Shown: in pieces, positions 1 to 34,291 of the stretch
How the letters are laid out: the number at the start of each line of letters is the position of its first letter
Position numbering within the stretch: the first letter of the stretch is position 1
Assembly: GCA_017525235.1 (NCBI GenBank)
Contig: JAFXTC010000018.1
Coordinates: 1,947 to 65,946, forward strand
DNA from: Bacteroidaceae bacterium
Lineage (GTDB): Bacteria > Bacteroidota > Bacteroidia > Bacteroidales > Bacteroidaceae
Direction: 5' to 3'
DNA: 64,000 nucleotides
Program-made: the position numbers and the translations under genes
The notes under the pieces: generated by a model
The model's database searches: none
What the model saw: only the letters and a program-made list of their open reading frames with translations
Told to the model about the DNA's origin: nothing

Positions 1-513
1 GAGGTCTGCTATATCAATCTTCTAAAATCGTGGTATAAGTCACCCATCAGAATCATTTCGCACATCGAAGGTACAAAGATCACGCCAACGTTGATTGAGA
101 AACGTACAAAGGAACTCAAAATCTCTCAATGGGATAAGGTGCACACATTCCTCATGTACGACATGGATGTACAGGCCATCAATGAGAAATTGCGTAAGTG
201 TAAGGCAGAAATGTTGCTGAGTAATCCTTGCTTTGAAATATGGTTGCTACTTCATGCTAAAGACCAAAAGGCTGCAATCGAAACGGATGCACTCATCAAA
301 GAGTTGAAGAAAAGCGCCCCCATGTGGAAGAATTACTCCAAGTCAGCCTTCACTGATACTCAAAAAGCATTTCTGAACGACAACACAGATGTTGCTGTTG
401 CGAGAGCAAAAGATTTGTGTGAATTCCAGAATCCATCAACAGGCATCTACAAATTGATTGAAATGCTTTCAAGTGATGCACGCCAATCGCTAGAAAGTGG
501 AAAGAGAGTTTAA
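1..513 (+). CDS. RloB-like protein, 5'-partial (enters from upstream of the window)
   Basis: Frame 1 is open from base 1 (EVCYINLLKSWYKSPIRI... precedes the listed Met). The C-terminal half carries NPCFEIWLLLH, the motif I associate with RloB-like (restriction-linked ORF) proteins, which usually follow an AAA ATPase gene. Confidence 0.65.
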   Translation, partial: EVCYINLLKSWYKSPIRIISHIEGTKITPTLIEKRTKELKISQWDKVHTFLMYDMDVQAINEKLRKCKAEMLLSNPCFEIWLLLHAKDQKAAIETDALIKELKKSAPMWKNYSKSAFTDTQKAFLNDNTDVAVARAKDLCEFQNPSTGIYKLIEMLSSDARQSLESGKRV

Positions 514-865
514 TAAAAGACCAAAATCCTAAACATGTTTGATAACAACATCGGCTTTAGAATTAAAGGTATAACGAGAAAGAAAATCTCGATGCTGAGT
601 CATTCCTCCAAACCCCATTTGGAGAATGGTTCACTGACAAGAAAAAGAACATCGCAAAGAACTGCTCCATGCTGCCTAAAGATTCATTGGTGTCGAAAAA
701 GGGCGTGGAAGCTGATTTGGCATACATCGAATTATAAAGGAATCACACACATCAACCTTGATTTAATATCATCACCTTGGTTGATCATGTCCCTAAAATG
801 ATGTGTAAGTAGATTTGTGAGAAATAGAATCATAAAATAAATATTTTAATAAAGTAACAACCAAA

Positions 866-3800
866 ATGGAAGCACTCGAAATATCATTAAGTTTCCTGAT
901 TTCGTATATAGTAGGAAATGTTCCATCTATTAAGGATTTGTTGGAAATAAACACTTCATTAGAAGAAAAGTTAGAAAAGTGTTTCAAGAAGGCCGTCAGT
1001 GATTGGGATGTTGATCCAGAGACAAAAAAAATGTTTGGGGATAATATGCCTCGATATTTGATTCACCTCAAGGAATTCCTTTCCCATACTCCCAAAGGAC
1101 ATCACCCAAAAGAGAATGAGCTTTTGAGGTTGTGGGCAGATTATATTATATCTGATGCTGACTGCAGTGCATTTATTCTGAAACATCAGCAGGATATAAT
1201 ACAAATGGATATACAACGAGGTTTCCAACGGGCAGAAGATATTTTATGCGATCTTAAATCTGCTATGGATGAGGAATTTCAACGTGTCCAGGAAAAATTG
1301 GATAGGTTGCTTAAGAGAGGAGTCTATTCATGTTCTGATTACTGGGATCGATATTCTACAATTGATACGGAAAAGAAACTTCCACAATCGATTATATTAT
1401 GTGGAAGAGAAGACATTTTCCCCAAAATCACTGGAGCCTGCAATAACCCTTCGTTGCTTAATATTGAATCAGAGACGCAAAAAGAGTCGCTTGCATTTGC
1501 TTGTGCTGTAGTTTTGTCATTAGGGAAAGACTATTCAGACAGAGCTTATGTTGTGGAAGACACAGGAGCCTACAAAGAACTATCCGTTATAGACAAACCA
1601 TTGATTATCATCACAAGTATCCTTGAAAACCATGCTATAGCTGTAAAAAATAGACATACCGTATTGTGTTGTGTTTCGCATCAAGATAGACTCCAAAACA
1701 CTATTAGGTTAGGAGAAATAGACAGAGATGGTTTTGTAGATGCCCTGAAGGATGCTGGATATGATGAGGCAAAAGCTAGGACAATGGCACGAGACACTTC
1801 AAGGGACATCAATAATTTTTGGCGCGCTGTGGGTATTGTAACAACAGCTCCCACTTGGGAAGACAACAAGAATATCAAGCTACTCATACCTGCTATGCTT
1901 TTAGGAGAATGGAGTGAATTGGTGAAGAACGATTGCGATATAGTATCGCAATTATCCAAGATGCCTTATGATGATTATATGCGCGAACTACACTTGATAA
2001 TAGCAGCTGAAGAATCGCCATTAACTAAAATCGGAGGAATATGGAAAATACGATCTCCTTATAACTTGATGCGACGTTTCTTCAGAGATATTACAGAAGA
2101 GGATATAAAAGCGTTTCTAAAATGTGCAGATTGGCTTATCGAAGACGATGATCCAGATGCTGTGGACAAAATGGATGCTGACTCCTTGAAATTTTGGAAG
2201 GACAAGCATGCTTTCTCTGATGCATTAAGAAGCGGTGTTTTCCAAGGAATTACTCTATTAGCATTGCTGCAAGAAGAAAACCTGGGTAGTTCAGAATTGA
2301 TTCGAAACTTTTTTCAGCAAAAACTTGATAGTTTCGGTCTGGTAAGATATTTATCGAACCGTAATTATCTTCAGTTGGTTGCAGAGGCTGTCCCTTCGGA
2401 GTTCTTATGCTATATTCAGTCAAATATGCGAGATGATAGTGAACTACTAAAAGAAATTTTTGAAGTAAGACAGCGAAAGTACGATATAGTTGGCACATCT
2501 ATCTATTACACAGATCTTCTTTTCTGTTTGGAGAATCTTGCATGGGATGAGCATTATCTATCATTAGTGACTGATATTCTACTCTATTTATGTAAATACC
2601 CGAATGAAAGCAATCGGGCAAATAAACCAATCAATTCGCTAATGGAAATATATCGATTCCGTCTACCTCAAACGTATGCCACATTTGACCAAAGGATGGA
2701 TATACTACATAATCTCTCTGGAAAATATCCAGACGAGGTAAGAATTTTGTGTTTCAAAGAATTGAAGGGGATATCTTCCATGGTATTCACTCATACAAGC
2801 CAATTCAAATGGAGATGGATGGAAAGGCAGTTTACTCCGAAATATATAGAATCGATTCCTGCGGAATATGTACAAAGAGTAGTAGACTTGATGTTACAAC
2901 TTACACAATGGACTAATGATGACATATGTGATTATTTGGAACTGTCGTCAAATGATTATATGCGTTTTTCGCGCGATTGTTTGCTCGCGGCTATTTCCGA
3001 ACACAAGGATCAAATGAAGGGTAATGACCTAATTGTAGAAACTTTACGAAAAGATATAAAAAGACATCGTTCTTGTAAAAAGGCAAAATGGGCACTGAAT
3101 GATGAGGAATTAAAGCCTTATGTAAATTTATTATCTGAAATTGAATCAGAAGATATTGTCATTCGAAACAAACATTGCTTTGATGAGCTATTACTTGAAG
3201 AACTGGATTTTGATAATGTGGGTTATGAGAAGAGGCATGAGGATACTCTCCAATATCGTGTATCTATAATTGATGAAATAATAGGAGAGAGAGGTATAGA
3301 AGGCGTGTTTCTGTTATCGAGATTGTCAAAGCAGAGTAGTACTATTGCGGAAGCTTTGGTAAAACTGAATGGCGGAAAGTATACAAATGAGATTTATAAA
3401 GGAGTTATTAAAACCTTACTACCAGAACAATTTGTACGCTCGTATTTCTTCCATCTTTATTTCGAGATTGGAAATGATACATATTTAACTATTTGCGATA
3501 CACTGCTCGCAGTTTCAGAGAATCATATTGCCGTCGTATTATATGCGCCTGAATTCAAACGTGAACTTGCAGACCGAGCAGAAAAACTAGGAGATAATGT
3601 GTCCTCTGAGTATTGGAAAAATGTAACACTGTGGAGACTTTCCGAAAGTGATATTCCATTGATACAGATGCGCCTAAAGAGTATTGGAAGATACGAAGAT
3701 CTCTTGACTCTTATGACTCATGGAAGTGTTGTAAGTGCATTCAGCTCGGAGGATAAAGTGTCGCTCCTCTTAGAGATGTTCCGTGCAGGTTTTATTGAGA

Positions 3801-4549
3801 ATATGATTCGAAATGCTTATCATATTGCGACATTACTCAAAACCATTGATTTGCCAACGGAAAAGGTTCAAAGAGATGGTATTCTCCAAATAGAGTTCTT
3901 AATGTACAATCATCTACGTCACTATATACATGGAGAATCTCTACATTTTGTAAAAGAGATTCAATCGTCTCCAGAACTGATGATAGAACTTGTAGAATTA
4001 CAGTATCTTCCAGACAAAGAATTCCGCCAAGAGGAAGATAGTAAAGCTGATAATCCCAATAAAGTAGCAATGGCTCGATTAGCATTTGATTTCTTTTATC
4101 ACTACCATTCGGTTCCTGGTCTTCAACCTGATGGAAAGTTAGACTATGCTATCCTAAATGAATATATTAATCATTTACAAGAACTGGCAATTTCTCATCA
4201 TAGAGTACATGTAATGCCCTTGGTCATAGGAAAAATGATAGGCGATATACCAGAAAGTGACAATTATCCATCTGATGAGATGTGTGAACTAGTTGAAAAA
4301 CTGGCTGATAACGAAATTGACAACCAAATAAGTTGTGCTATTTCCAACAGACGTGGCATGTCGAGCAGAAATCCATATGAAGGTGGTACCGTAGAAAGGA
4401 AACATATAGAAACGCTGAACAAATACAGAGAACGTGCATTAGGTAAGTCACAAAGAATGGTAAAAATATTGTCTGATGAAATTAGAAGTTTTGAAGCTAT
4501 GGCCAAACGAGAGGACGAGATGGCTGAAATGAGAAAATTGAAATACTAG
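866..4549 (+). CDS. 1227-aa orphan protein, function unknown (STAND-like layout with degenerate P-loop?)
   Basis: One uninterrupted 3.7-kb ORF in an AT-rich segment. No Walker A, nuclease or protease motif was recognised. Residues ~180-310 have the spacing of a STAND NTPase core (GRED...LLNIESETQKESLAFA / PLIIITS / RHTVLCCVSHQD / IRLGEIDRDGFVDAL) but no GxxxxGK[ST]. About 900 aa of helical-looking sequence follow. Confidence 0.75.
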   Translation: MEALEISLSFLISYIVGNVPSIKDLLEINTSLEEKLEKCFKKAVSDWDVDPETKKMFGDNMPRYLIHLKEFLSHTPKGHHPKENELLRLWADYIISDADCSAFILKHQQDIIQMDIQRGFQRAEDILCDLKSAMDEEFQRVQEKLDRLLKRGVYSCSDYWDRYSTIDTEKKLPQSIILCGREDIFPKITGACNNPSLLNIESETQKESLAFACAVVLSLGKDYSDRAYVVEDTGAYKELSVIDKPLIIITSILENHAIAVKNRHTVLCCVSHQDRLQNTIRLGEIDRDGFVDALKDAGYDEAKARTMARDTSRDINNFWRAVGIVTTAPTWEDNKNIKLLIPAMLLGEWSELVKNDCDIVSQLSKMPYDDYMRELHLIIAAEESPLTKIGGIWKIRSPYNLMRRFFRDITEEDIKAFLKCADWLIEDDDPDAVDKMDADSLKFWKDKHAFSDALRSGVFQGITLLALLQEENLGSSELIRNFFQQKLDSFGLVRYLSNRNYLQLVAEAVPSEFLCYIQSNMRDDSELLKEIFEVRQRKYDIVGTSIYYTDLLFCLENLAWDEHYLSLVTDILLYLCKYPNESNRANKPINSLMEIYRFRLPQTYATFDQRMDILHNLSGKYPDEVRILCFKELKGISSMVFTHTSQFKWRWMERQFTPKYIESIPAEYVQRVVDLMLQLTQWTNDDICDYLELSSNDYMRFSRDCLLAAISEHKDQMKGNDLIVETLRKDIKRHRSCKKAKWALNDEELKPYVNLLSEIESEDIVIRNKHCFDELLLEELDFDNVGYEKRHEDTLQYRVSIIDEIIGERGIEGVFLLSRLSKQSSTIAEALVKLNGGKYTNEIYKGVIKTLLPEQFVRSYFFHLYFEIGNDTYLTICDTLLAVSENHIAVVLYAPEFKRELADRAEKLGDNVSSEYWKNVTLWRLSESDIPLIQMRLKSIGRYEDLLTLMTHGSVVSAFSSEDKVSLLLEMFRAGFIENMIRNAYHIATLLKTIDLPTEKVQRDGILQIEFLMYNHLRHYIHGESLHFVKEIQSSPELMIELVELQYLPDKEFRQEEDSKADNPNKVAMARLAFDFFYHYHSVPGLQPDGKLDYAILNEYINHLQELAISHHRVHVMPLVIGKMIGDIPESDNYPSDEMCELVEKLADNEIDNQISCAISNRRGMSSRNPYEGGTVERKHIETLNKYRERALGKSQRMVKILSDEIRSFEAMAKREDEMAEMRKLKY

Positions 4550-4791
4550 TATAAACATTTTTTACGTCCAATACGTTCTACTATAATATTTTATTCTATT
4601 TATGATTGATAATATTGATTATTATTGGTGCCTGATAATTAGGAACAATCATTGAAAGAACTATGTAACATGACTCTTGCCACTTACCGTTTCATTGCCA
4701 TTTGAGCATTCTACACCCATCCAAATCAAGAAAAATCATCAAATTTGTGATTTTTTCTGTGTTTTCTTTTGGTTGTTTGGGGAGAAATCTG

Positions 4792-4799
4792 TACCTTTG
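4792..4799 (+). promoter_or_regulatory. Bacteroidota -7 box TACCTTTG (TAnnTTTG), TTTG candidates upstream at 4768-4779
   Basis: Exact match to the TAnnTTTG consensus. No long ORF follows on this strand before the terminator at 4941-4973. Confidence 0.4.
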
Positions 4800-4805
4800 C
4801 AGTGA

Positions 4806-4973
4806 TTTTGTAACATGTTGATTATCAATGGTTATTTCCGTTTTTGCGACATGTATGCAACATCCGGTGCTAACGCATTGATAGTCAGTTAAAGTCGTTT
4901 TCGAGGAGGTTAAGTAATTGTTATAAAAATGATATGAAAAGCGTGCAGTTCTATTGGGCTGCACGCTTTTTTT
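4806..4973 (+). ncRNA. Candidate small RNA (promoter-to-terminator unit without a convincing ORF)
   Basis: Bounded by the TACCTTTG box and a strong hairpin plus T-tract. The only ORF on this strand is a 25-codon ATG ORF (MLIINGYFRFCDMYATSGANALIVS). Confidence 0.3.
4941..4973 (+). terminator. Rho-independent terminator (GCGTGCAG-10 nt loop-CTGCACGC + T7)
   Basis: 8-bp GC-rich stem at 4941-4948 / 4959-4966, followed by TTTTTTT. An A-run upstream makes it potentially bidirectional. Confidence 0.65.
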
Positions 4974-5017
4974 CTGAAAAAAACAACCTCTTTGGTTGGG
5001 GCTTCAGAAAAAAAAGC

Positions 5018-5058: not shown

Positions 5059-5937
5059 ATGAAACTTACAGGACGAAGAGAAAGTACCAACGTTGACGAC
5101 CGACGTGGAATGTCGGGTGCTAAGATGGGCGGCATGGGTATTGTCGGCATCATCATAGTAGCGTTGATAACATTGCTTTCAGGCGGTAATTTGGGCGATG
5201 TGTTCAATAGTGTAATAAGCAACCCAGAGCTGTTGAATGTCAATGTCACAGAGCAGGCCGAGGGAGGTCGTGAGTTTACTCAGGAGGAACAGGAACTGGC
5301 CAAGTTCTCGAAGCAGATTCTGGCTGGAACAGAAGATGTGTGGACTGAGGAGTTCAAGAAGCTGGGACGTACCTACGAGCCTCCCAAAATGGTGCTATAC
5401 ACAGGAAGTGTGCAAACTGCATGTGGAAACGGACAGAGCAGCATGGGTCCCTTTTATTGCTCAGCCGACCAGTGCCTGTACATCGATCTTTCTTTCTTCT
5501 CTTCTATGAAGCAGCAGTTAGGTGCCGATGGTGATTTTGCCTATGCCTATGTGATTGCTCACGAGGTAGGACATCATGTGGAATACCTGTTGGGTTCGCT
5601 GGGTAAGGCACACGAGCAGATGTCCCGTATGAATCAGACGGACGCCAATAAGGTAAGCGTTCGTTTGGAGTTGCTGGCCGACTTCTATGCTGGTGTTTGG
5701 GCTTACCACGACAATGAGATGTTTGGCAGCCTGGAGGATGGTGACCTGGAGGAGGCAATCCGATGCGCACAAGTAATAGGCGATAACTACCTGCAAGAGA
5801 AAGCTCGTGGCTACTCACAGCCTGAAACCTTCACTCATGGCACCAGCAAGCAGCGTATGAAGTGGCTGAAGCTAGGCCTTACCACGGGTGATATCCGCCG
5901 AGGCAATACCTTTGAGTGCAGCGATGCAGAATTGTAA
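5059..5937 (+). CDS. YpfJ-family neutral zinc metallopeptidase (membrane-anchored)
   Basis: N-terminus MKLTGRRESTNVDDRRG followed by a TM helix; HEVGHH zinc motif; length typical of the YpfJ family. Confidence 0.85.
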   Translation: MKLTGRRESTNVDDRRGMSGAKMGGMGIVGIIIVALITLLSGGNLGDVFNSVISNPELLNVNVTEQAEGGREFTQEEQELAKFSKQILAGTEDVWTEEFKKLGRTYEPPKMVLYTGSVQTACGNGQSSMGPFYCSADQCLYIDLSFFSSMKQQLGADGDFAYAYVIAHEVGHHVEYLLGSLGKAHEQMSRMNQTDANKVSVRLELLADFYAGVWAYHDNEMFGSLEDGDLEEAIRCAQVIGDNYLQEKARGYSQPETFTHGTSKQRMKWLKLGLTTGDIRRGNTFECSDAEL

Positions 5938-7605: not shown

Positions 7606-8418
7606 ATGAAAAAGATTATTTTCTTGCTGCTCATAGCTGCAGTATCAATGAGTGCAAAGGCACAGTTGAAGGTTAACAAGTATCACGAGCCCATTAAGGT
7701 AGAAAAGCAATGGCTGAAGTATAATCCGGGAGAGGTTATCTTCCGAGATGAGGCTCCTCAGACTGAGGGTTCGAAGATTTATCATAATATTATTCCCAAT
7801 CCCACTCCATACATTCAGGAGAATGCACGTCGTGTGCTTCAGACATTGTATTATGGTCCTAAGGATAAGAACATTCCAAAATTGAAGACTATCAATTATA
7901 GTTTGGTTGATCAGGATGGTATCAGCTGGAAGTATGGTGGCGGAGATATGGTAGGCGTTTGCTACACAACCGGTTGGATTGAGAAAAGTTTCCAAAATAA
8001 TGATACCATGCGTCTTGACTACGAGACTCGTGGCGTGCTGTATCACGAGTTGACTCATGCCTATCAGTTGAATCCTCAGGGATGCGGCGATTATGGGGAT
8101 TATGGAGAGAACTGGTGCTTCATTGAGGGTACTGCTGATGCAGTACGTTTGGCATGTGGTTGTTTCGAGCAGGACTTCAAGAGCAAGGATCGCCCTCGTG
8201 CAGAATCATGGCGTAAGGGTTATCGTGTTGCTGGTTACTTCATTTATTGGTTGCAGTTAAATAAAGACAAGAACTTCATCCGTAAGTTCAATGCTTCTGC
8301 TGCTGAACTGAACCCTTGGTCATGGGATAAGGCCATGAAGCATATTTTGGGCGACAAGCCTGAGAATGGTGTCGAGGAACTTTGGAACGAGTACTTACAT
8401 GCGATTGGAGATAAATAA
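7606..8418 (+). CDS. Basic secretory protein-like (BSP family) putative metallopeptidase
   Basis: Signal peptide; HELTHAYQ motif; overall resemblance to the plant/bacterial BSP peptidase family. Confidence 0.65.
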   Translation: MKKIIFLLLIAAVSMSAKAQLKVNKYHEPIKVEKQWLKYNPGEVIFRDEAPQTEGSKIYHNIIPNPTPYIQENARRVLQTLYYGPKDKNIPKLKTINYSLVDQDGISWKYGGGDMVGVCYTTGWIEKSFQNNDTMRLDYETRGVLYHELTHAYQLNPQGCGDYGDYGENWCFIEGTADAVRLACGCFEQDFKSKDRPRAESWRKGYRVAGYFIYWLQLNKDKNFIRKFNASAAELNPWSWDKAMKHILGDKPENGVEELWNEYLHAIGDK

Positions 8419-8445
8419 AGTTTAGAGTTTAGAGATAAAAGAAAA

Positions 8446-8472
8446 GGCCTTGCGAATCCGCAGGGCTTTTTC
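8446..8472 (+). terminator. Rho-independent terminator
   Basis: GCCUUGCG-AAUC-CGCAGGGC (8 bp including one G-U pair) followed by TTTTT. Confidence 0.6.
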
Positions 8473-8497
8473 TTTAGGCTTTAGGCCTTAGAGCTGT

Positions 8498-8575
8498 CTA
8501 TAACCAATAACCTATAACCAATAACCTATAACCAATAACCTATAACCAATAACCTATAACCAATAACCTATAATC
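8498..8575. repeat. 14-bp tandem repeat CTATAACCAATAAC, about 5.5 copies, no G on the + strand
   Basis: Read directly. Units start at 8498, 8512, 8526, 8540 and 8554, with a partial unit at 8568. The unit at 8554-8567 encodes the last residues and stop (GYWL*) of the minus-strand DUF554 gene. Confidence 0.95.
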
Positions 8576-9276
8576 AAATAAAAAATGACGGGAACCAGGA
8601 GCGAGGGTAGGAGGTTGACCGTTTTGCAATCCTTAATACCTAAGATGCTGAGGCCGGAACTGATGATGAGCACACCTCCTACAATACTCAGTTCGCTGCG
8701 CATAGGTTCTGGCATAGCCTCGCCAAAGAAATAGGCAATGGCATAGAACATACCCTGCCAGCAGAAAAGAATGGGAGCCGCCAGCAGCATAATCCATCCG
8801 TAGGAAGCTGCCAGTACGGCAGATGTAACAAGGTCTAGGGTGGCATTTGTATAAAGGAATGTATTACCCTGCTCATTGAAAACCCAACCCTGAGAGGGGG
8901 AGAGACAAGATAGCACAGGACCAACTATAGAAAAGGTGCCTATGCAGAAAAGCAGACAGCCTGTAACAAGACCCTCCAGGCCGTTACTCTCTTTCTTTCG
9001 CTTAGCATTAATCTTTGCATTCAGTCGGTCTATGCGTCCTGCCAAATCCAGTTTGGTGCCAATAACTCCTCCTATTGCAAGGCTCAGAATGAATAACACG
9101 GGATATTCGCTCTTTTCCATGTTGGGCAACGAGGCATTCATTCCCAAAACCAGACAGGCTAAACCCAAAGCATCAAATAAAGCCTTTTTGTATTTTTCGC
9201 CAATTCCCTGACGTATGGTAGCACCGAATGTGGCACCTATTAATATGGTTGCGGTATTTACTATGGTTCCTAACAT
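8554..9276 (-). CDS. DUF554 family membrane protein
   Basis: MLGTIVNTATILIGATFG... is the typical DUF554 N-terminus, so the internal Met at 9276 is preferred over 9339. Multi-pass membrane protein. Confidence 0.8.
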   Translation of the reverse strand: MLGTIVNTATILIGATFGATIRQGIGEKYKKALFDALGLACLVLGMNASLPNMEKSEYPVLFILSLAIGGVIGTKLDLAGRIDRLNAKINAKRKKESNGLEGLVTGCLLFCIGTFSIVGPVLSCLSPSQGWVFNEQGNTFLYTNATLDLVTSAVLAASYGWIMLLAAPILFCWQGMFYAIAYFFGEAMPEPMRSELSIVGGVLIISSGLSILGIKDCKTVNLLPSLLVPVIFYLIIGYWL

Positions 9277-9351: not shown

Positions 9352-10500
9352 ATGAACAGACCCCGATATGATATTTTGGATGGCCTTAGAGGTGTGGCAG
9401 CCCTAATGGTGCTTTTGTACCATGTGTTCAACGATGCCAAAAGTTTCTTTGTATGGCCTACTCCTGTTAACGAGTTCTATCACAGTTTCTTGGGGGTGGA
9501 TTTCTTTTTCATCCTCTCAGGCTTTGTCATGGGGTATGCTTATGATGAGAGACTAAACAGACCCGCCCCCGTCCCCTCCCGTGATGGAGGGGAGGCTTTG
9601 ACCTTTTGGGGATTTGTGAAAAGGCGTCTTATTCGTCTGCATCCTATGGTGGTGATGGGTGTGATTTTGGGAGCCATTGCCTTTGTTGTTCAGGGATGCA
9701 CCAGATGGGACGGCACCGAGGTAACCTTGCAGGCTGTGATGTGGGCTACGTTGCTGGGCCTCTTCTTGATTCCTTCGCCTCTTGGGATGGATGTACGGGG
9801 AAATACCGAGGCTTTCCCGTTGAACGGTCCGCATTGGTCGTTGTTCTTCGAGTACATAGGAAGCTTGCTTTATGGCTTGCTTCTGCACCGCCTTCCCACC
9901 AAATGGCTTCGCGTTTGGGCAGCTTGCGGCATCATCTCTTTGGCAGCCTACGCCTTGATGATGGAAGATGGGGGAGTGGCCTATGGTTGGTCTTCGGAGC
10001 CTATGAACCTTTTTGGTGGAGCCCTACGTATGCTTTATGCCTATCCCATGGGTTTGCTTATGGCTCGTATGTTCCGTAAGCGTAATCCCGAACCTCTGCA
10101 TGGACACGTGTTCTTGTTCTGTAGTGCGTCTTTAGTAGTGCTGTTAGGTCTTCCCATTGTTGGTGGAAAAGAAACAGAAACCATTTACCAATTAGCATGT
10201 CTTTTCTCTTTCTTCCCTGGTCTCATCTGGATTGGTGCACGTGGTTCGGTTGATGGCTGGCGTCAGCGGGCAGTCTCTTTTCTAGGCCGACTCTCTTATC
10301 CGCTATATGCTGTCCATTTCCCCCTTATATATCTTTATATCTCATGGGTGGGGCGCGATGGTGCTCCTTATAAGGGATACGACCAGCCTTGGACTGCAGC
10401 CATCATCACCATTGCAGCCTCACTGCTTATTGCTACCCTCTGTATGCTCTTCTATGATGAGCCGTTACGTAAATGGTTAAGTCGAACAAATAAGAAATAA
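9352..10500 (+). CDS. Acyltransferase family 3 (OafA-like) membrane protein
   Basis: N-terminal YDILDGLRGVAALMVLLYH motif; about 10 TM helices. Confidence 0.8.
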   Translation: MNRPRYDILDGLRGVAALMVLLYHVFNDAKSFFVWPTPVNEFYHSFLGVDFFFILSGFVMGYAYDERLNRPAPVPSRDGGEALTFWGFVKRRLIRLHPMVVMGVILGAIAFVVQGCTRWDGTEVTLQAVMWATLLGLFLIPSPLGMDVRGNTEAFPLNGPHWSLFFEYIGSLLYGLLLHRLPTKWLRVWAACGIISLAAYALMMEDGGVAYGWSSEPMNLFGGALRMLYAYPMGLLMARMFRKRNPEPLHGHVFLFCSASLVVLLGLPIVGGKETETIYQLACLFSFFPGLIWIGARGSVDGWRQRAVSFLGRLSYPLYAVHFPLIYLYISWVGRDGAPYKGYDQPWTAAIITIAASLLIATLCMLFYDEPLRKWLSRTNKK

Positions 10501-20856: not shown

Positions 20857-20871
20857 CAGCCGCTTAGATAT

Positions 20872-20958
20872 GGAGAGATGCCAGAGTGGTCGAATGGACC
20901 GCACTCGAAATGCGGCGTACTCTTACGGGTACCCAGGGTTCGAATCCCTGTCTCTCCG
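20872..20958 (+). tRNA. tRNA-Ser (anticodon CGA)
   Basis: Cloverleaf folded by hand. Acceptor GGAGAGA/UCUCUCC; 3-bp D stem; anticodon stem CCGCA/UGCGG with loop CU-CGA-AA; long variable arm (GUAC...GUAC); T arm CAGGG-UUCGAAU-CCCUG; discriminator G. Confidence 0.95.
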
Positions 20959-20974
20959 CCCAATTAAATACACA

Positions 20975-28112: not shown

Positions 28113-29516
28113 TTAACTATTTAAGTTGAACAACAAATGAATCTTATCAGCATAGTTATCTAAAGAAGGACACCCGTCAAACCGATTATCCCAAAATTGA
28201 ATAATTCTAGAAAGTTCAGATCTGTCCAATTGTTTTGGATCAAAGTTTAAGTTGATTTCTTTTGCCGAGTCATTATATGTATACAATTTGTTACTATCTG
28301 TGCCATATTCATTCTGATTATATCCAACTATCAACATTCCTATAATGAGATAGAAAGGATGGCTTGTATCAGAATATTTTATTAATTCATGCGGGAATAT
28401 CTCTATAATAATATCAATGAGATTCTGGATGGAAAATTTTCTCTTGCATATCTGTTCAAACAATTCCGAATGACAAACATGTAAATATATTAAAACAAAA
28501 AGGTAATCACAACGCACATTACTATATGTAGGAAACATTCGTAGGGCGAGGCGTGTATTAGAAAACAATCTATCAATACTTCGTAAGGGAAGATTAGAAT
28601 ATTGAGAAATTGTTGTAGTCATATCTGTAAATGTTTTAGCCTCACTATTGCTTTGATTTCTTCTGGGTCGTTCTATGCTATCAAAAAACTCACTAAATGA
28701 ATAATATTCAAAGAGATAACTACAAAACGATTGAATATTTGTTTGTGGTAGCGTAAATTCCAAGTCGACAAACCTTCTAAGATATTCTTGTGCGTTAATA
28801 CTTTCACTTCCATAATAGCCACAAATCGAATGACAAAGATGTTTTTTATCTACAGACAATACAAAAACAACATTACGAACAGAAAATAAATGCTTAATAC
28901 GTTCAAGAACTTTCACAGCATATTTTGGATTGCATCTATCTAATTCGTCAACAATAAATACCAAAGGCTTATTGGGAGTCATCCCCAAAACGTATTCTTC
29001 CAAAGCGTTTTGAAAGGCTTCTATTGATTTCTTTTGCTCAATATATTTATCCAGACTTTGCTCCAAAGTGTTTGAAAGTACTTCTAGTCCTTCTTTTGAT
29101 ATTTTTTCAAGGTCAACCCCAAATGAATATTTTGCGATTAACGATAATATTGTTGGAACCATAGCAAGAGACATCTTGCTAAATGTCCTCGTCATCTTCT
29201 TAGTTGCCTCTTGCAATTTGTCTGTTGATAATTTCTTGAATTCTGCAATTAGTGCAATTAAAGGGTCTTCGATATAGTCAGTTTCCCAAGCATTAAAATA
29301 AATAGTTTTATAAGTATGATCATCAAGTTGTTGTTTCCACATTTTGATGAAAGTGGTCTTTCCTGTTCCCCATTCTCCGTTTAATGAAATCACACAGCCT
29401 CCATTATATGTAGAAATGATTTGTTCTAATACGTCGCCATATTGTTTCCTTCCAAGTTTGTCATTCCGATAGGGATCCATAGGTGGAATAACGATATCAC
29501 TATGTCGTGCTAACAT
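28113..29516 (-). CDS. KAP family P-loop NTPase
   Basis: DKLGRKQYGDVLEQII...ISLNGEWGTGKTTF (Walker A); FNAWETDY; Walker B/KAP motif VFIVDELDRCNP; hydrophobic insert SLAMVPTILSLIAKYSFGV between Walker A and B. Confidence 0.85.
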   Translation of the reverse strand: MLARHSDIVIPPMDPYRNDKLGRKQYGDVLEQIISTYNGGCVISLNGEWGTGKTTFIKMWKQQLDDHTYKTIYFNAWETDYIEDPLIALIAEFKKLSTDKLQEATKKMTRTFSKMSLAMVPTILSLIAKYSFGVDLEKISKEGLEVLSNTLEQSLDKYIEQKKSIEAFQNALEEYVLGMTPNKPLVFIVDELDRCNPKYAVKVLERIKHLFSVRNVVFVLSVDKKHLCHSICGYYGSESINAQEYLRRFVDLEFTLPQTNIQSFCSYLFEYYSFSEFFDSIERPRRNQSNSEAKTFTDMTTTISQYSNLPLRSIDRLFSNTRLALRMFPTYSNVRCDYLFVLIYLHVCHSELFEQICKRKFSIQNLIDIIIEIFPHELIKYSDTSHPFYLIIGMLIVGYNQNEYGTDSNKLYTYNDSAKEINLNFDPKQLDRSELSRIIQFWDNRFDGCPSLDNYADKIHLLFNLNS

Positions 29517-29592
29517 GTTAATGTTTTATTATTCGTGATTTAGACTACACCGTAACATTTTATAGTTATCAACAGTCTCCATGAATTAACTC

Positions 29593-29997
29593 TTAAATCA
29601 CACTTTTGTCAATTTCGAAAAACACAAAAAAGGCAACAATTAGGATATAACCTATTATCAAAGTCCAGAGTTTACCTTTATAAAGAATCCAGCCCCATTT
29701 GTTTTTTTCTTCTGGTTCCTTCACATCCTCATTTTCTTCCTTGCCGAATTTATCTTTCATCATAGTATAATAATCATACCATGTAATTGAAAGGTGATAA
29801 TTTTGAATTAAATCTGCAAATAACGTGATAATGAATAAAGATAATGCACCTATCAAAAGCAAGGGAAGATTCTCTGGTTCTGCTTTAGTCATAAACAACC
29901 AGGCAATCGCAATGCCAGATATAGCTAAGTTTCTTACGGTGCTGCTAAATGTGCCAGAGGTTTCTTCGTATCCCTTCCTAATATCTTCTAACTTCAT
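29593..29997 (-). CDS. 134-aa three-TM membrane protein, unknown function
   Basis: Three hydrophobic helices (ISGIAIAWLF; LLLIGALSLFIITLFADLI; LWTLIIGYILIVAFFVFF) with an acidic/lysine-rich loop. Same strand as the KAP NTPase gene and 76 nt upstream of it. Confidence 0.65.
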   Translation of the reverse strand: MKLEDIRKGYEETSGTFSSTVRNLAISGIAIAWLFMTKAEPENLPLLLIGALSLFIITLFADLIQNYHLSITWYDYYTMMKDKFGKEENEDVKEPEEKNKWGWILYKGKLWTLIIGYILIVAFFVFFEIDKSVI

Positions 29998-30110
29998 TAT
30001 CTTTGATTTGCTGGAGTTCTTGGGCCTGTTCCTCTACTACTGCCTGTGCTAGGCTTTGGTGATGTTGTTGTTCTTGGAGTCCCTTGCGGACGTTGTACTG
30101 TATTATTCAT
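29997..30110 (-). CDS. Candidate 37-aa micro-ORF MNNTVQRPQGTPRTTTSPKPSTGSSRGTGPRTPANQR
   Basis: Hand translation. Its TAA stop overlaps the ATG of the 3-TM gene (TAATG). It is the first ORF after the TATCTTTG box at 30169-30176 and is too short for the ORF track. Confidence 0.3.
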   Translation of the reverse strand: MNNTVQRPQGTPRTTTSPKPSTGSSRGTGPRTPANQR

Positions 30111-30168
30111 GTGATTAGAATTATATGTTTAACTTCTTATTTATTTCGTTTGGCGTATTCTTGGTTAG

Positions 30169-30176
30169 CAAAGATA
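30169..30176 (-). promoter_or_regulatory. -7 box TATCTTTG for the micro-ORF/3-TM/KAP operon
   Basis: TAnnTTTG match about 59 nt upstream of the micro-ORF ATG at 30110. Confidence 0.4.
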
Positions 30177-30188
30177 CGTTTTGATGTT

Positions 30189-30305
30189 TTATCCCTGTGT
30201 TATCCGCTCAACTCTTGCACTAGCACCAGTATCAAAATCTTCGTATCTGGTCTTGAGTCCATGAGCCAAGTCAAATCCGTTTCCTATGAGAACAAGCCGA
30301 TTCAT
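30189..30305 (-). pseudogene. AbiH-like abortive-infection gene remnant (first ~25 codons conserved, 38-codon ORF)
   Basis: Hand translation MNRLVLIGNGFDLAHGLKTRYEDFDTGASARVERITQG*. IGNGFDLAHGL.T.Y.DF is the N-terminal signature of AbiH-family proteins. The ATG overlaps the hsdM stop (TAATG). Confidence 0.5.
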
Positions 30306-31891
30306 TATACCAATGGGGGCAAACCAAGTTCTTTCAAAAATTCATTATGCTTATCACGAGCTTTGATGATTTCTGCTTCTATCTCTACCAACTTATCATG
30401 TACTTCTTGAAGGTCAATAGGCTTTTCTTCTTGTGCCAGACTAACATAGCGGGTAATGTTCAGATTGTAGTCATTATCCCTAATCTCTTGCAGTGTGACT
30501 TGACGGGAATAACGTAATATTTCCTTGCGGAACTGGTATGTATCTACAATATCGTCTACATCTTTATCTCGAAGATAATTCTGGCGTTTGCCCTTTTCGT
30601 AATGCTCATCGGAACTGGCATTGATGAAAAGTATTTTGTCATTCTTACGACACTTCTTTAATACAATGATGCATACAGGAATACCTGTTGAATAGAACAG
30701 ATTGCCTGGCAAACCAATAACAGCATCGATATTGTCATCTTCGAGCAGTTTCTTTCTGATAGCCAACTCCTTGCCTCCACGGAACAACACACCATGAGGC
30801 AGAATGATAGCCATTGTCCCGTCTTCACTTAGAAAGTGGAAACCATGCAAAAGGAAAGCAAAGTCAGCGGCAGAACGTGGTGCTACTCCATAGCGATTAA
30901 AACGGAAGTCATTGATGGTGTCTTCCGTTGGATCCCAACGCAGAGAGAAAGGCGGATTGGCTACGACTGCATCGAAATCTATCTTGTTAGCAGGATTTTC
31001 CTCCTGCAAGATATCCCAATCATTAGCAAGTGAATCACCATGATGAATTTCAAAAGCAGAGTCTTTTACCCCATGCAGCAACATATTCATTCGGCAAAGG
31101 TTATAGGTCGTGATATTCTTCTCCTGACCATAAATCTTGCCTATTCCGCTTTCGCCCATCTGGTTGCGAACATTCAGCAACAACGATCCTGAACCACAAG
31201 CAAAGTCAAGCACACGGTTAATCCTGTTCTTCTTGCCAGATGCAGAGTCTTGACAATCCAAAGTAACAATACGAGAAAGAATTGTTGAGATCATCTGTGG
31301 GGTATAGAACTCACCTGCCTTTTGACCTGAACCTGCTGCAAACTGACCAATCAGATATTCATAAGCATCACCTAACGAATCGTTATCGGCAGAGAATTCT
31401 TTCAGTCCATTCGCAATCGTCGTAATGACCTTTGTCAACAAGTCATTTCGCTCTGTATAGTTCTTTCCTAACTTCTCAGAACTCAAATTGATTTCAGAGA
31501 ACAAACCTTTAAACGAACTGTCAAAGGAATCATTCTCTATATATTTAAAACCATCTTCTAATGTTTGAAGCAGTTCTTTGCTTTGAATTCTGGCCAATTC
31601 GACAATATTATTCCATAGATATTTTGGTTCAATTACATAATGAACTTTACGTTTCATCTGCTTCTCAAACAGCTCCGTATCGTTGGGGTTCTCAATGTAC
31701 CAAGTCTGTAGTGTAGTGTAATCAGCCCCCAGTTCCTTTTTTGCGGCATCGACGTAGTTATCCGACAAGTATTTCCAGAACAAGAACGACAGCATATAAT
31801 CACGGAAATCATCTGCCATCATAGCCCCACGTAGATTGTCGGCTATTCCCCAGAGGACCTTACCTAATTCATGTTGCTTGTTTGTAATCAT
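30305..31891 (-). CDS. hsdM: Type I restriction-modification system methyltransferase subunit
   Basis: HsdM N-terminal domain (LWGIADNLRG); AdoMet motif LDFACGSGSLL; catalytic VVANPPFS. Confidence 0.9.
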   Translation of the reverse strand: MITNKQHELGKVLWGIADNLRGAMMADDFRDYMLSFLFWKYLSDNYVDAAKKELGADYTTLQTWYIENPNDTELFEKQMKRKVHYVIEPKYLWNNIVELARIQSKELLQTLEDGFKYIENDSFDSSFKGLFSEINLSSEKLGKNYTERNDLLTKVITTIANGLKEFSADNDSLGDAYEYLIGQFAAGSGQKAGEFYTPQMISTILSRIVTLDCQDSASGKKNRINRVLDFACGSGSLLLNVRNQMGESGIGKIYGQEKNITTYNLCRMNMLLHGVKDSAFEIHHGDSLANDWDILQEENPANKIDFDAVVANPPFSLRWDPTEDTINDFRFNRYGVAPRSAADFAFLLHGFHFLSEDGTMAIILPHGVLFRGGKELAIRKKLLEDDNIDAVIGLPGNLFYSTGIPVCIIVLKKCRKNDKILFINASSDEHYEKGKRQNYLRDKDVDDIVDTYQFRKEILRYSRQVTLQEIRDNDYNLNITRYVSLAQEEKPIDLQEVHDKLVEIEAEIIKARDKHNEFLKELGLPPLV

Positions 31892-33018
31892 ATATAAAAC
31901 TGAAATTTCGTTTCGATTCTTTCAAAAATGTCCATAAACAACTTTTGCTGTTCAGGTGACATCAAGTGTGTTTGATAATAATAAACATCTTTATGAGATT
32001 GCTCATTAACAACCTCTGCAGTATTTGAATCGTCAATCCCAAGTCTGCTTAATGCAAATCCAAAGTTGCCACTTCTACCAAGGAAAGATGCTATATTTTC
32101 TAATAATTGTCGAAGCAATACGAAATTGAAACAATCTAAGTACCCATTTTGTGTTTTGTCAATGTTTTCCTTAATCATTTTATAAAGATGTAAATGATAT
32201 AAGAACACATCATTTCCATAAGAAGATAGCAGTAATTTTCCATTAGGATCTTTTCCCAATATAAATGTTTTTGTTATATTTTTAAATCTTTCACTTCCAC
32301 TGGCTTTTCTAAGTCTATCAATAAGAATAGAGTACAATTCTACATGATGAGTTGTAATAATAATCTTTTTCCTTTTATAATTATTTATAATAACATCCAT
32401 AATTGCAGATGCCGTAATATGGATATTATGCTCGTCTAAACTCGAAACTGGATCATCTATAAAGATATGAGCATCTTGCTCTTCAATCCATGCTTCAACT
32501 TCGAAAAGAGCCAAGAAAAAACACCAGATAAAAATACGTTCCTCTCCTCTTGAGATTTTGATTGGATGAGCCTGTTCGACGTCGTCTAAGGTGTAAAAGG
32601 AAAAAGAATCAATGCCCTTCTCTATATCATCAAAGCCATTTGTTTGATAAACATTTATTTTAAAAGTAAAATTTGGATTATATCTATTCAATTTTTCTTG
32701 AATCCTTGTAAATACGATTCTACCATCTTCTAACTTTTCTGTACCTTCTATCAAATAAGAATGGTATTGATTCAAACTACTTTCCAGTACAGACAATTTC
32801 ATATTTTGATTGCTATGTTCTTCATCATTATCCCAAAAGAACAAGTCTTCACTATAAGCATTAAAATATACACCAGCATGATTTCCTCCATTATGCTGCT
32901 TGGTCGTATCTTTGTATGAAACGGATAATCTTGTTTTGCCTACAGCGTTAAAGGCATAAATTAAAACAATTTTTGATGTTTCAACTCGTATCTGTTCTGC
33001 AATTTCTTTTAAATCCAT
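31888..33018 (-). CDS. PrrC-like ABC-type ATPase / putative anticodon nuclease embedded in the hsd operon
   Basis: Variant P-loop IYAFNAVGKT; signature-like ISRGEERIF; Walker B HIFIDDPVSSLD; H-loop IITTHH. The C-terminal region has RQLLE (R-x3-E) and NEQSH 39 residues later, like the PrrC Arg/Glu/His triad. Sits between hsdS and hsdM with 4-nt gaps/overlaps. Confidence 0.55.
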   Translation of the reverse strand: MDLKEIAEQIRVETSKIVLIYAFNAVGKTRLSVSYKDTTKQHNGGNHAGVYFNAYSEDLFFWDNDEEHSNQNMKLSVLESSLNQYHSYLIEGTEKLEDGRIVFTRIQEKLNRYNPNFTFKINVYQTNGFDDIEKGIDSFSFYTLDDVEQAHPIKISRGEERIFIWCFFLALFEVEAWIEEQDAHIFIDDPVSSLDEHNIHITASAIMDVIINNYKRKKIIITTHHVELYSILIDRLRKASGSERFKNITKTFILGKDPNGKLLLSSYGNDVFLYHLHLYKMIKENIDKTQNGYLDCFNFVLLRQLLENIASFLGRSGNFGFALSRLGIDDSNTAEVVNEQSHKDVYYYQTHLMSPEQQKLFMDIFERIETKFQFYI

Positions 33019-33022
33019 ATTG

Positions 33023-34291
33023 TTAACTATTTATTGGGAATAATTGCTGAATTAATCCTTTTTTATAATCTTCTATATATATAAGTTTGTTTTTATATGC
33101 ATCAATTAAATCATCTATAGTTGATAAGCAAGATGCAATTTTCATTTGCTCTTTCATATTTTGAGGATGCTGCCATAATAAAGATTCAATATCATTGGAA
33201 GATATATTAGGTTGGGCTCCTGCAGCTAACATCTTTTTAATTTGATTGGCAAAATGATCCGTTCTTATCCATTGACAAATGAAAGGATAATAAATTGAAT
33301 TATCAACCAGTTTAAATATACCTACACGTTGATTGACATATACAGGTTTCTTTCCACGGTAAATGGCAGTCTTTCCTGTTGTTGCTCCAGACATTGCAAT
33401 TAATAAGTCTCCGTCATTTGCAGTATAATTATGCATATTTGGAAGTTCTTCATAAAAAACACAATTCTGAAGATTTACAACTAATGAATCTGATGGAATA
33501 TTTGATATTCTAATAACTGGAATTTCTGTAGTTTTGAATTTGTTACTCTTGAAAGCATATCCACCTTGCAGCTTAAATGATTCTCCCACTCTATTTGTTG
33601 TCCAATCTTCATTCGTTTTAAACTCTGGTAAACGATACTCAGGAACTGTTTGCCCCTTTTGAGGGAACAACTTTTGTAAAAGGCTTGTTTTATGTGCCTT
33701 TAATTGCTCCACTTTTTCGCTAATAGAAGAAATGTATGAATCAATAGAGGACAAACACTCTGCTATCTTTTGCTGTTCTTCAATAGATTTTGGTATAATC
33801 AGAGGACAACTTAAAACTTCATCTTTTTTAAGATTTGTTTGCTTTACCCCATCATCAAAGGATAAGAAATAGGGATTCCTATTTAATATGTAATACAATA
33901 ATTTACTGTTTGCTCCTTTAGATCGAAGCTTGCAAATCCGTTGGTTTACAGTGTATTTGTTTGAAGCATCTACATAAAAACATTTTGCAATTGCTTTTCC
34001 ATTTGGCAAATCACTCAACACCATTAAAATATCATCTTCTTTAGCCAAACAATGAGCATTGTTTGTTCGCTTCTCAATTTGACCTTCTGTTGATATAAAT
34101 TTTGAGTTTACAACTATATACTTTCCTAATGAGTCAATATCGTTTTCATGAGCCACCCCATTTTCATAATCCATTTCTGCTCGTAATGTGGTACAAGCCC
34201 ATTCTGTATCCCTCACAAATTTAGGGAAACGGAGTAATGGGATAAGTTTCTTCTCTGTATTCATAATATTAACCCTCCCATTAATCTTCAT
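33023..34291 (-). CDS. hsdS: Type I R-M specificity subunit
   Basis: Two target-recognition halves separated by conserved helices (...QQKIAECLSSIDSYI... and ...QMKIASCLSTIDDLI...). An alternative start at 34264 (MNTEKKLIP) is possible. Confidence 0.85.
   Translation of the reverse strand: MKINGRVNIMNTEKKLIPLLRFPKFVRDTEWACTTLRAEMDYENGVAHENDIDSLGKYIVVNSKFISTEGQIEKRTNNAHCLAKEDDILMVLSDLPNGKAIAKCFYVDASNKYTVNQRICKLRSKGANSKLLYYILNRNPYFLSFDDGVKQTNLKKDEVLSCPLIIPKSIEEQQKIAECLSSIDSYISSISEKVEQLKAHKTSLLQKLFPQKGQTVPEYRLPEFKTNEDWTTNRVGESFKLQGGYAFKSNKFKTTEIPVIRISNIPSDSLVVNLQNCVFYEELPNMHNYTANDGDLLIAMSGATTGKTAIYRGKKPVYVNQRVGIFKLVDNSIYYPFICQWIRTDHFANQIKKMLAAGAQPNISSNDIESLLWQHPQNMKEQMKIASCLSTIDDLIDAYKNKLIYIEDYKKGLIQQLFPINS

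Follow-up and report, generated by a model that had tools for sequence, protein, structure and literature searches.

A family of putative Avs8-related immune sensors lacking the nucleotide-binding motifs, represented by a 1,227-residue protein of a Bacteroidaceae bacterium

Receptors of the STAND/NLR type are defined by an ADP/ATP switch that gates their oligomerisation. Among the bacterial systems of this kind is PD-lambda-4A, now named Avs8: this STAND NTPase carries an Mrr nuclease at its N-terminus and is triggered by HK97-fold major capsid proteins (10.1101/2025.07.02.662641; PMC13581612 / 10.64898/2026.01.04.697583). Avs8 is encoded by a two-gene operon, A plus B (10.1101/2025.07.02.662641). 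A figure legend in the Avs8 literature mentions KpAvs8, an Avs8 homologue that naturally lacks the nucleotide-binding residues, and, as far as that legend goes, this one homologue is the sole precedent that we found for a loss of the switch. We studied a gene for a protein of 1,227 amino acids (aa) located in a 64,000-nucleotide (nt) stretch of DNA from a Bacteroidaceae bacterium (assembly GCA_017525235.1, contig JAFXTC010000018.1, positions 1,947 to 65,946 of the forward strand), which as a whole is called the window. What is new is an Avs8-related family that lacks the nucleotide switch, and its N-terminal module. On balance we consider it likely that the gene product is an immune sensor of the Avs kind that works as a single, self-contained protein and whose switch domain has lost nucleotide binding.

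Relationship to Avs8A and the missing nucleotide switch

The gene is one open reading frame (ORF) without internal stops, and it follows a truncated RloB gene in an AT-rich segment, as had been described in an initial annotation of this DNA made from its letters. A word-indexed search found 47 homologues, mostly of 1,205-1,244 aa, in metagenome assemblies. With HMMER, an exhaustive search by a body profile trimmed at the N-terminus gave, counted at 50% identity, 6,422 clusters at E<=1e-3, 3,325 of them at E<=1e-30, distributed across several phyla; the best 150 clusters were nearly all of 1,200-1,390 aa and were matched end to end. The word orphan, which the initial annotation had used, is thus right for the curated family libraries only: the window protein had no significant match in Pfam, PADLOC or NCBIfam. 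In the PDB, neither the protein nor its N-terminal 170 aa nor the family alignment found anything meaningful by sequence or profile. Among 38 members spread over the ranking, no Pfam domain was found except an N-terminal helix-turn-helix (HTH), and none of the STAND models of Pfam (NB-ARC, NACHT, AAA_16, others) was matched by these members or by the window protein.

The reference for the comparison with Avs8A was EcAvs8A (WP_096096413-type), located in an annotated E. coli genome with part of the cloned insert that had been published; this protein of 1,283 aa has a Walker A motif GLSGVGKT and a Walker B motif IMILDN. BLASTP aligned it with residues 502-679 of the window protein (E 4e-4). HHalign of the 38-member family alignment gave 90.5% and E 1.4e-6 with EcAvs8A alone, and 94.3% and E 9.6e-8 with a 16-member Avs8A profile, along 589 collinear columns. 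These columns pair ITGLSGVGKTRIVQAL with LNIESETQKESLAFACA and AIMILDN with PLIIITS, and the alignment continues through the region of the helical domain and the winged-helix domain (HD-WHD). For most members of the superfamily, the shared N-terminal domain stops in the alignment where the Avs8A Mrr domain also does. The central block taken alone (window protein 480-700 against Avs8A 530-760) reached 97.1% and E 7.1e-11. Other segments taken alone did not align significantly with Avs8A by HHalign: E was 0.16 for the segment that joins the nucleotide-binding domain (NBD) to the HD-WHD, 0.43 for the second sensor half and 0.14 for the C-terminus. PADLOC models of PD-Lambda-4_A did not match the window protein at E<=1, and they gave weak matches in divergent members, whose positions were constant (E 5.6e-6 to 1e-2 in one set and 1.4e-6 to 2e-4 in another). 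Of the 38 spread members, 10 were matched, the best at E 5.6e-8; all these matches are partial, of about 90 residues each.

Remote homology with Avs8A is thus proven for the central block, and with the collinear architecture it points to a family that is a distinct sister of Avs8A. No other part is significant alone, and it is fold and collinearity that make the core readable as a P-loop derivative; the assignment to STAND likewise relies on fold topology together with collinearity with one significant block. The placing of ESETQKES on Walker A and of IIIT on Walker B comes, with this caveat, from the collinear extension of the HHalign alignment, the core alone being non-significant. The initial annotation had proposed that ESETQKES stands where GxxGxGKT should be, and the 589-column alignment made the same pairing. 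Its STAND-like core was recovered by comparison of hidden Markov models (HMMs) in the collinear full alignment, although not with the core alone. Avs8A and the window family are similar in length and in the order of a collinear N-terminal module, NBD-HD-WHD and helical sensor, and they share a homologous block after the WHD; the reported existence of KpAvs8, the P-loop-less homologue of the figure legend, is a further likeness. They differ in that Walker A and B are intact in Avs8A and both are missing from the window family, and in that the N-terminus is an Mrr nuclease in Avs8A and helical in the window protein. Avs8A has its partner Avs8B, whereas tblastn found no Avs8B-like gene in the window or in any family locus; the PD-Lambda-4_A models miss the window protein, and in searches at database scale neither the family profile nor the Avs8A profile finds the other.

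Two overlapping AlphaFold2 models were made on family alignments, one of residues 1-600 (predicted local distance difference test, pLDDT, 85.6) and one of residues 150-1227 (pLDDT 89.2, predicted template modelling score 0.75). They agree with the layout that had been read from the sequence: helical N-terminus, core and helical repeats. The alpha/beta core presented strands at 197-202, 227-230, 247-250, 265-271 and 279-281, with GRE at 180-182, the beta1-ESETQKES-alpha1 unit at 197-214 (nt 1454-1507) in the Walker A position and PLIIITS at 245-251 (nt 1598-1618) in the Walker B position. A GRE about 20 residues ahead of the first strand is typical of AAA_16-type STAND NTPases, and it serves here as a lead towards that class. 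Helices at 287-380 and a beta-hairpin at 386-395 appeared in both models with pLDDT above 90, and from residue 411 to the C-terminus the model is an uninterrupted, all-helical solenoid of about 800 aa. The top Foldseek matches in the PDB for residues 1-600 were NLRP14, Apaf-1 (four entries), the Drosophila apoptosome, RFC, TRIP13 and ORC/Cdc6, together with the archaeal STAND-like SSO1545 (2fna also listed), NLRP2 and the NRC2 resistosome. STAND and AAA+ proteins therefore head the list, although with marginal scores, and this predicted fold is consistent with a STAND/AAA+-type core but is not strong evidence on score. For the body, generic alpha-solenoids dominated (karyopherins, CAND1, condensin; E ~1e-4), and the AVAST5 filament 9nc9 (prob 1.0, 567 columns) and human SAMD9 were also found.

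The pattern GxxxxGK[ST] was present anywhere in only one of 194 family proteins, there at a non-equivalent position, versus 119 of 120 Avs8A relatives; for the window protein, a motif-pattern scan agreed with the earlier remark that it has no P-loop. Conserved substitutes occupy the switch (E207, A210, F211 and T250). The invariant or near-invariant positions of the core are R181 (of GRE), E207/A210/F211 (xESLAFA), I247/I249/T250 (IIIT), H264 and L282/F290, and a further conserved block, LExLAWD...NKPxNSL...LPQT, covers residues 555-603; the motifs that the initial annotation quoted turned out to be the most conserved positions of the family. Pairwise ratios of nonsynonymous to synonymous substitution rates (dN/dS) between the window gene and its relatives of 93%, 79% and 73% identity were 0.16-0.25 overall and 0.21-0.24 in the core, and the gene is under purifying selection. 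The C-terminal ~125 residues are the most constrained part (dN/dS 0.09-0.15): G1122, D1152, NRRG 1161-1164, GGxxER 1173-1178 and D1217 are invariant or at least 90% conserved in the superfamily sample, which suggests a binding or catalytic site, and the region matches neither a known family nor a known structure. Judged by these comparisons, the absence of the P-loop is a family trait and not decay, and the core has been kept for some role that is not nucleotide binding, most plausibly that of a module for structure or oligomerisation.

N-terminal modules, distribution and genomic contexts

The N-terminus varies among members. In the clade of the window protein, it begins with a conserved hydrophobic helix, ALSFLISYIVGNVP (ALSF-ISYIAGN-P), whose hydropathy is borderline for a transmembrane (TM) helix (Kyte-Doolittle 1.1-1.9 over 19 residues). 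In the model, residues 1-150 are helical only, with five short helices up to about residue 105 and a long helix at 98-150; the first ~27 residues are of low confidence. Most of the superfamily has instead a nuclease-like domain of about 180 aa (GWDG...WExGT...FVFVTPRxW), sometimes preceded by an XRE-type HTH. Two members, P0045 and P0046, start with a calcineurin-like metallophosphoesterase (Metallophos E 5.2e-15 in P0045) that matches the N-terminus of PADLOC PDC-S60 at profile positions 1-301 (E 1.4e-49). With PDC-S60, a candidate single-gene system, P0045 and P0046 have this phosphoesterase in common, which shows that the N-terminal position accepts modules of other candidate defence proteins; the likeness does not extend to the body of PDC-S60, and a phosphoesterase domain is lacking in the window protein.

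A profile search with the helical module found no fusion to other protein bodies, only fragments and two stand-alone genes. The stand-alone relatives, of 213 and 224 aa, lie directly upstream of TIR-domain proteins of 1,313 and 1,314 aa, respectively, and residues 4-105 of the module are homologous to the 213-aa protein P0337 (HHalign 98.9%, E 1.7e-17). Occurring fused and alone, the helical module is a discrete unit in at least two kinds of putative defence system. The pair of the module with a TIR_2 protein of ~1,313 aa, which has no P-loop, is recurrent (L032:4058-8668 and L034:188-4807), and in L032 genes for a 589-aa AAA_15 ATPase and a DUF2971 protein come before it; the pair looks like an undescribed defence operon. 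The 1,313-aa TIR protein was tested as a member of the body family and is not one, and a 320-aa gene of the TIR operon gave no match when tested as the TM protein of the window (see below).

The close clade was found in six loci among about 185,000 species-representative genomes, all of Bacteroidales (Prevotella, Muribaculaceae, and rumen or gut metagenome-assembled genomes). Other members were carried by plasmids of Rhizobium, Shewanella, Cupriavidus, Ralstonia, Adhaeribacter and further hosts; conjugative plasmids held 11 of 24. No homologue was found in the phage genomes searched. RefSeq calls the plasmid members 'hypothetical protein', 'helix-turn-helix transcriptional regulator' or 'HigA family antitoxin'. 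As seen on plasmid pS19502 of Shewanella baltica (L027, 152-4264), the names given to members of ~1,370 aa rest on an N-terminal HTH of ~55 aa, and for proteins of this length the HigA antitoxin and HTH regulator names are likely misleading.

We inspected about 15 distinct contexts of the family. The relative of 93% identity (L009) is preceded by an HTH gene, a gene for an AlbA_2/HATPase_c_4 protein and one for a 326-aa TM protein, and hsdR, ThsB-TIR and hsdS are close by. Upstream of the 79% relative (L014) are two paralogous TM-protein genes and a patatin-domain gene, and downstream are DUF559, a KAP NTPase and a gene of the metallo-beta-lactamase fold. None of the AbiL, TM-protein or other partner genes accompanies the 73% and 48% relatives. 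The 39% relative (L001) is followed by PDC-M29A and a 201-aa protein; this protein, beside the ATPase, was tested as RloB-like and is not. In three loci of a divergent clade (L008, L020 and L022) the gene is inside type I restriction-modification (R-M) operons, between hsdS and hsdR, with PD-T4-4 A plus B, or GmrSD plus an AlbA_2 protein, as neighbours. Genes for Fic, a YhcG-type nuclease, DUF2971 and AlbA_2/HATPase_c_4 proteins also occur between hsdM and hsdR in these three loci; type I R-M operons act as landing pads for defence genes. Note that the member P0041 of L008, called as 1,039 aa, is really an ORF of 1,236 aa starting at 9410. A distant member, P0112, lies on a conjugative element among a PvuRts1I/SRA enzyme, a RelA_SpoT gene and a Pycsar pair.

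Most of these contexts hold known defence genes within a few kb, in agreement with the defence-island association against which the initial annotation had asked to be checked, and no neighbour is universal among the loci examined. Varied defence neighbours of which none is universal are the pattern of an autonomous defence-island gene. Four of 13 loci have, next to the gene, a protein of ~490-530 aa with AlbA_2 (Schlafen-like), HATPase_c_4 and Fic-like_C domains. In L020 it directly follows the gene, and in the other three loci its position is upstream; a small divergent HTH gene often accompanies it. Its matches to PADLOC models associated with pAgo are weak.

The gene of the window is preceded by another kind of neighbour. 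The RloB gene at the window edge (Pfam PF13707, E 1.1e-20, in the translation of nt 1-510; stop codon at 511-513) also matches PADLOC AbiLii (E 5.7e-14). A locus 99% identical to the window, L029, has AbiLi (E 5.3e-57), a full AbiLii of 195 aa (E 3.4e-22), the same 353-nt spacer and the gene; its DNA matches window 8-4622 at 97.4% and then diverges, with different genes downstream, and the similarity of L009 to the window stops near 4601. The spacer of ~350 bp, suspected to be decayed sequence, does contain the remnant of another gene. This remnant has no start codon and has stop codons upstream; by tblastn it is 75% identical to residues 260-322 of the intact 326-aa protein of L009 (E 1.5e-26), and its DNA is 79% identical in nucleotides to L009 and L014. 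In the intact TM protein (~320 aa), two TM helices at the N-terminus are accompanied by a coiled coil and by a conserved domain at the C-terminus, and the protein had no match in Pfam and PADLOC searches; the intact genes of L009 and L014 are 59% identical to each other. The AbiL pair therefore adjoins the ORF because a rearrangement deleted the first ~260 codons of the TM-protein gene.

Proposed function weighed against the alternatives

The tripartite design of the Avs proteins, with an N-terminal module, an NBD-HD-WHD-like unit and a repeat sensor, was found in the window family through the models, the Foldseek matches and the variation of the modules. Avs1-5, bNACHT, Apaf-1, the NLRPs and SAMD9 share this design, with interchangeable N-terminal modules, and STAND proteins of the Avs/NLR type are also the structural neighbours of the models and single-gene systems of defence islands. 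They differ in that the window family has no nucleotide-binding motifs, so that an ADP/ATP switch is unusable; functional NTPase motifs and an NBD detectable as STAND by sequence, which define Avs proteins, are both absent from it. The suggestion of the initial annotation, an Avs/NLR-like sensor with lost nucleotide-binding motifs, is therefore favoured by the fold, the homology with Avs8A, the absence of the P-loop, the module swaps and the defence contexts. By analogy with Avs, the solenoid would wrap a conserved phage protein; binding of this ligand would free the protein from autoinhibition, and the core would oligomerise without the ATP-binding step of canonical Avs. The clustered N-terminal modules would then trigger growth arrest or cell death (abortive infection). 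This effect may come through enzymatic activity in the nuclease-type and phosphoesterase-type relatives; in the clade of the window, the helical module of ~105 residues may either target the membrane or bring in another protein as an adaptor.

Several results weigh against this proposal. The NBD alone aligned with Avs8A at an HHalign E of 0.49, and at the scale of 1.84 billion proteins the family HMM reached Avs8A relatives at a best E of 0.038, the reverse search being equally weak. The Foldseek E-values of the N-terminal half are marginal, from 8e-3 to 0.2, with none at or below 1e-3. The sensor halves past the central block are not detectably similar, therefore the Avs8 ligand is not transferable, and capsid sensing cannot be carried over from Avs8 to this family. 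The stand-alone modules beside the TIR giants would suit an adaptor or a regulator no less than an effector. Finally, the TM gene kept upstream in the closest relatives is destroyed in the window, and this copy might lack a needed partner.

This last point leads to a two-gene system, in which the big protein would be the sensor and the upstream ~320-aa, two-TM coiled-coil protein the effector, the window copy being stranded, inactive or rewired. In the 93% and 79% relatives the TM gene immediately precedes the big gene (as a tandem pair of paralogues in the latter), the 3' end of the TM gene persists in the window, and Avs8 itself has two genes, A plus B (10.1101/2025.07.02.662641). However, the 73%, 48% and ~39% relatives lack the TM gene, as does the divergent clade, the TM-less arrangement is common (P0001 represents 80 member sequences, with the ORF intact), and the TM protein, unmatched in Pfam and PADLOC, is unrelated to Avs8B; we regard such a system as unlikely. 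Far less probable is that the big gene is a third AbiL component, or a partner of an AAA_15-type ATPase pair, as the initial annotation had suggested in proposing joint work with the upstream ATPase and RloB. AbiLi and AbiLii are immediately upstream in window-type loci, and pairs of an AAA_15 ATPase and a small protein also flank the gene in L001, L008 and L022. Nevertheless, these pairs are three independently defined systems, AbiL, PDC-M29 and PD-T4-4, those beside distant relatives being PD-T4-4 and PDC-M29; the 201-aa partner in L001 is not RloB-like, and gene order varies among loci. The AbiL pair adjoins only the window gene and its 99%-identical copies, the relatives at 93%, 79%, 73% and 48% identity have other neighbours and no ATPase pair, and the TM-gene remnant between RloB and the ORF argues against a functional unit of AbiL plus ORF. 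The pairing of RloB/AbiLii with AbiLi holds for the gene at window 1-513, the pair being complete in L029, and does not extend to the big gene; as a conserved extra AbiL component the latter fails, its adjacency being confined to window-type loci. The contexts speak against this explanation, which is largely refuted. AbiL, an RloA/RloB-type pair of ATPase and TOPRIM-like protein, resembles the gene as defence-island cargo and is its immediate upstream neighbour; it differs in being a separate two-gene system whose adjacency is not conserved and arose by the rearrangement that destroyed another gene. We favour the view that it is independent and landed there by that rearrangement.

Genes of the RloB family are classically linked to hsd. 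This general knowledge, the position of the gene between hsdS and hsdR in the three divergent-clade loci and the presence of hsdR and hsdS within 8 kb in L009 would fit a restriction-linked ORF, i.e., an accessory or regulatory factor of type I R-M loci and not an autonomous sensor. This is very improbable, given that most family loci have no hsd genes nearby and that hsd operons are landing pads for unrelated defence genes, which here also include PD-T4-4, GmrSD, Fic and DUF2971. It is likewise quite improbable that the protein has no immune role and is a large helical scaffold or a transcription-linked regulator. The fold matches of the body are dominated by generic HEAT/ARM scaffolds, and members with an HTH are annotated as transcriptional regulators or HigA antitoxins; on the other side are the patchy distribution (6 close-clade loci in ~185,000 species genomes), the low G+C, the variable flanks and the carriage on plasmids and conjugative elements, as well as the enzymatic N-terminal modules swapped in and the consistent nearness of defence genes, and those RefSeq names reflect the ~55-aa HTH alone on proteins of ~1,370 aa. 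The reading as a self-contained Avs-kind sensor can be extended, with some doubt, to the whole superfamily: its more than 6,000 clusters could possibly be STAND-derived receptors that all signal without nucleotide, the ligand alone driving assembly, and the helical module could be a new signalling or death module, used in fusion or as a separate subunit of giant TIR proteins.

Other features of the window and implications

The coordinates of the features are collected in Table 1. The G+C content is 0.35-0.39 across window 1-5000 versus 0.45-0.51 in the flanking core genes, and the first gene after the low-GC segment (5059-5937) is of the Zn_peptidase family. The horizontal acquisition put forward in the initial annotation is upheld by the low G+C and by the same cassette in differing flanks; the gene is mobile among defence islands of Bacteroidales. 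A scan for promoters and terminators gave a number of sites not above that of shuffled sequence. A second low-GC (0.31-0.40) defence island, with a type I R-M operon and a gene for a KAP-family P-loop NTPase, occupies window 28113-37274 on the negative strand. The sole tRNA of the window, tRNA-Ser(CGA) at 20871-20962, adjoins neither low-GC island, so that neither of them is obviously tRNA-integrated.

Table 1 Features of the window and of related loci (window positions unless a locus is named)
Feature	Coordinates	Strand	Basis
RloB/AbiLii gene, 3' part (170 codons), cut by the window edge	1..513	+	Pfam, PADLOC
Truncated pseudogene, last ~58 codons of a ~320-aa TM protein	567..740	+ (frame 3)	tblastn, DNA alignment
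1,227-aa gene, putative P-loop-less STAND-derived (Avs8-related) phage sensor	866..4549	+	ORF
N-terminal helical module, residues 1-165	866..1360	+	DSSP of model, alignment
Putative degenerate nucleotide-binding-like alpha/beta core, residues 166-285	1361..1720	+	strand/helix order, Foldseek, HHalign
Helical domain and winged-helix-like unit, residues 286-410, HD-WHD equivalent	1721..2095	+	both models
Alpha-solenoid (HEAT/TPR-like), residues 411-1100, presumed ligand sensor	2096..4165	+	all-helical model
Central block homologous to Avs8A, residues 480-700	2303-2965	+	HHalign
Highly conserved C-terminal region, residues 1101-1227	4166..4546	+	conservation
3' flank common to other cassette copies	4550..4622	+	flanks differ past ~4622
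KAP-family P-loop NTPase	28113-29516	-	
hsdM	30305-31891	-	
AAA_13 protein embedded between hsdS and hsdM	31888-33018	-	
hsdS	33023-34291	-	
hsdR	34281-37274	-	
Intact TM-protein gene	L009:8933-9913		
Intact TM-protein genes (tandem paralogues)	L014:6465-7310 and 7649-8596		
AlbA_2/HATPase_c_4 genes	L009:7402-8928, L017:7021-8601, L018:3221-4825, L020:13245-14717		

The conserved non-P-loop switch and the purifying selection make a testable case of NLR-like assembly and signalling without nucleotide, for which the nuclease-like, metallophosphoesterase and helical modules are natural handles in assays. The family is not seen by Pfam, NCBIfam and PADLOC v2, so that defence censuses, in particular those of gut and rumen Bacteroidales, likely undercount. 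If signalling without the switch were to hold across the superfamily, the present defence-finder tools would be missing a major branch of bacterial NLR-like immunity.

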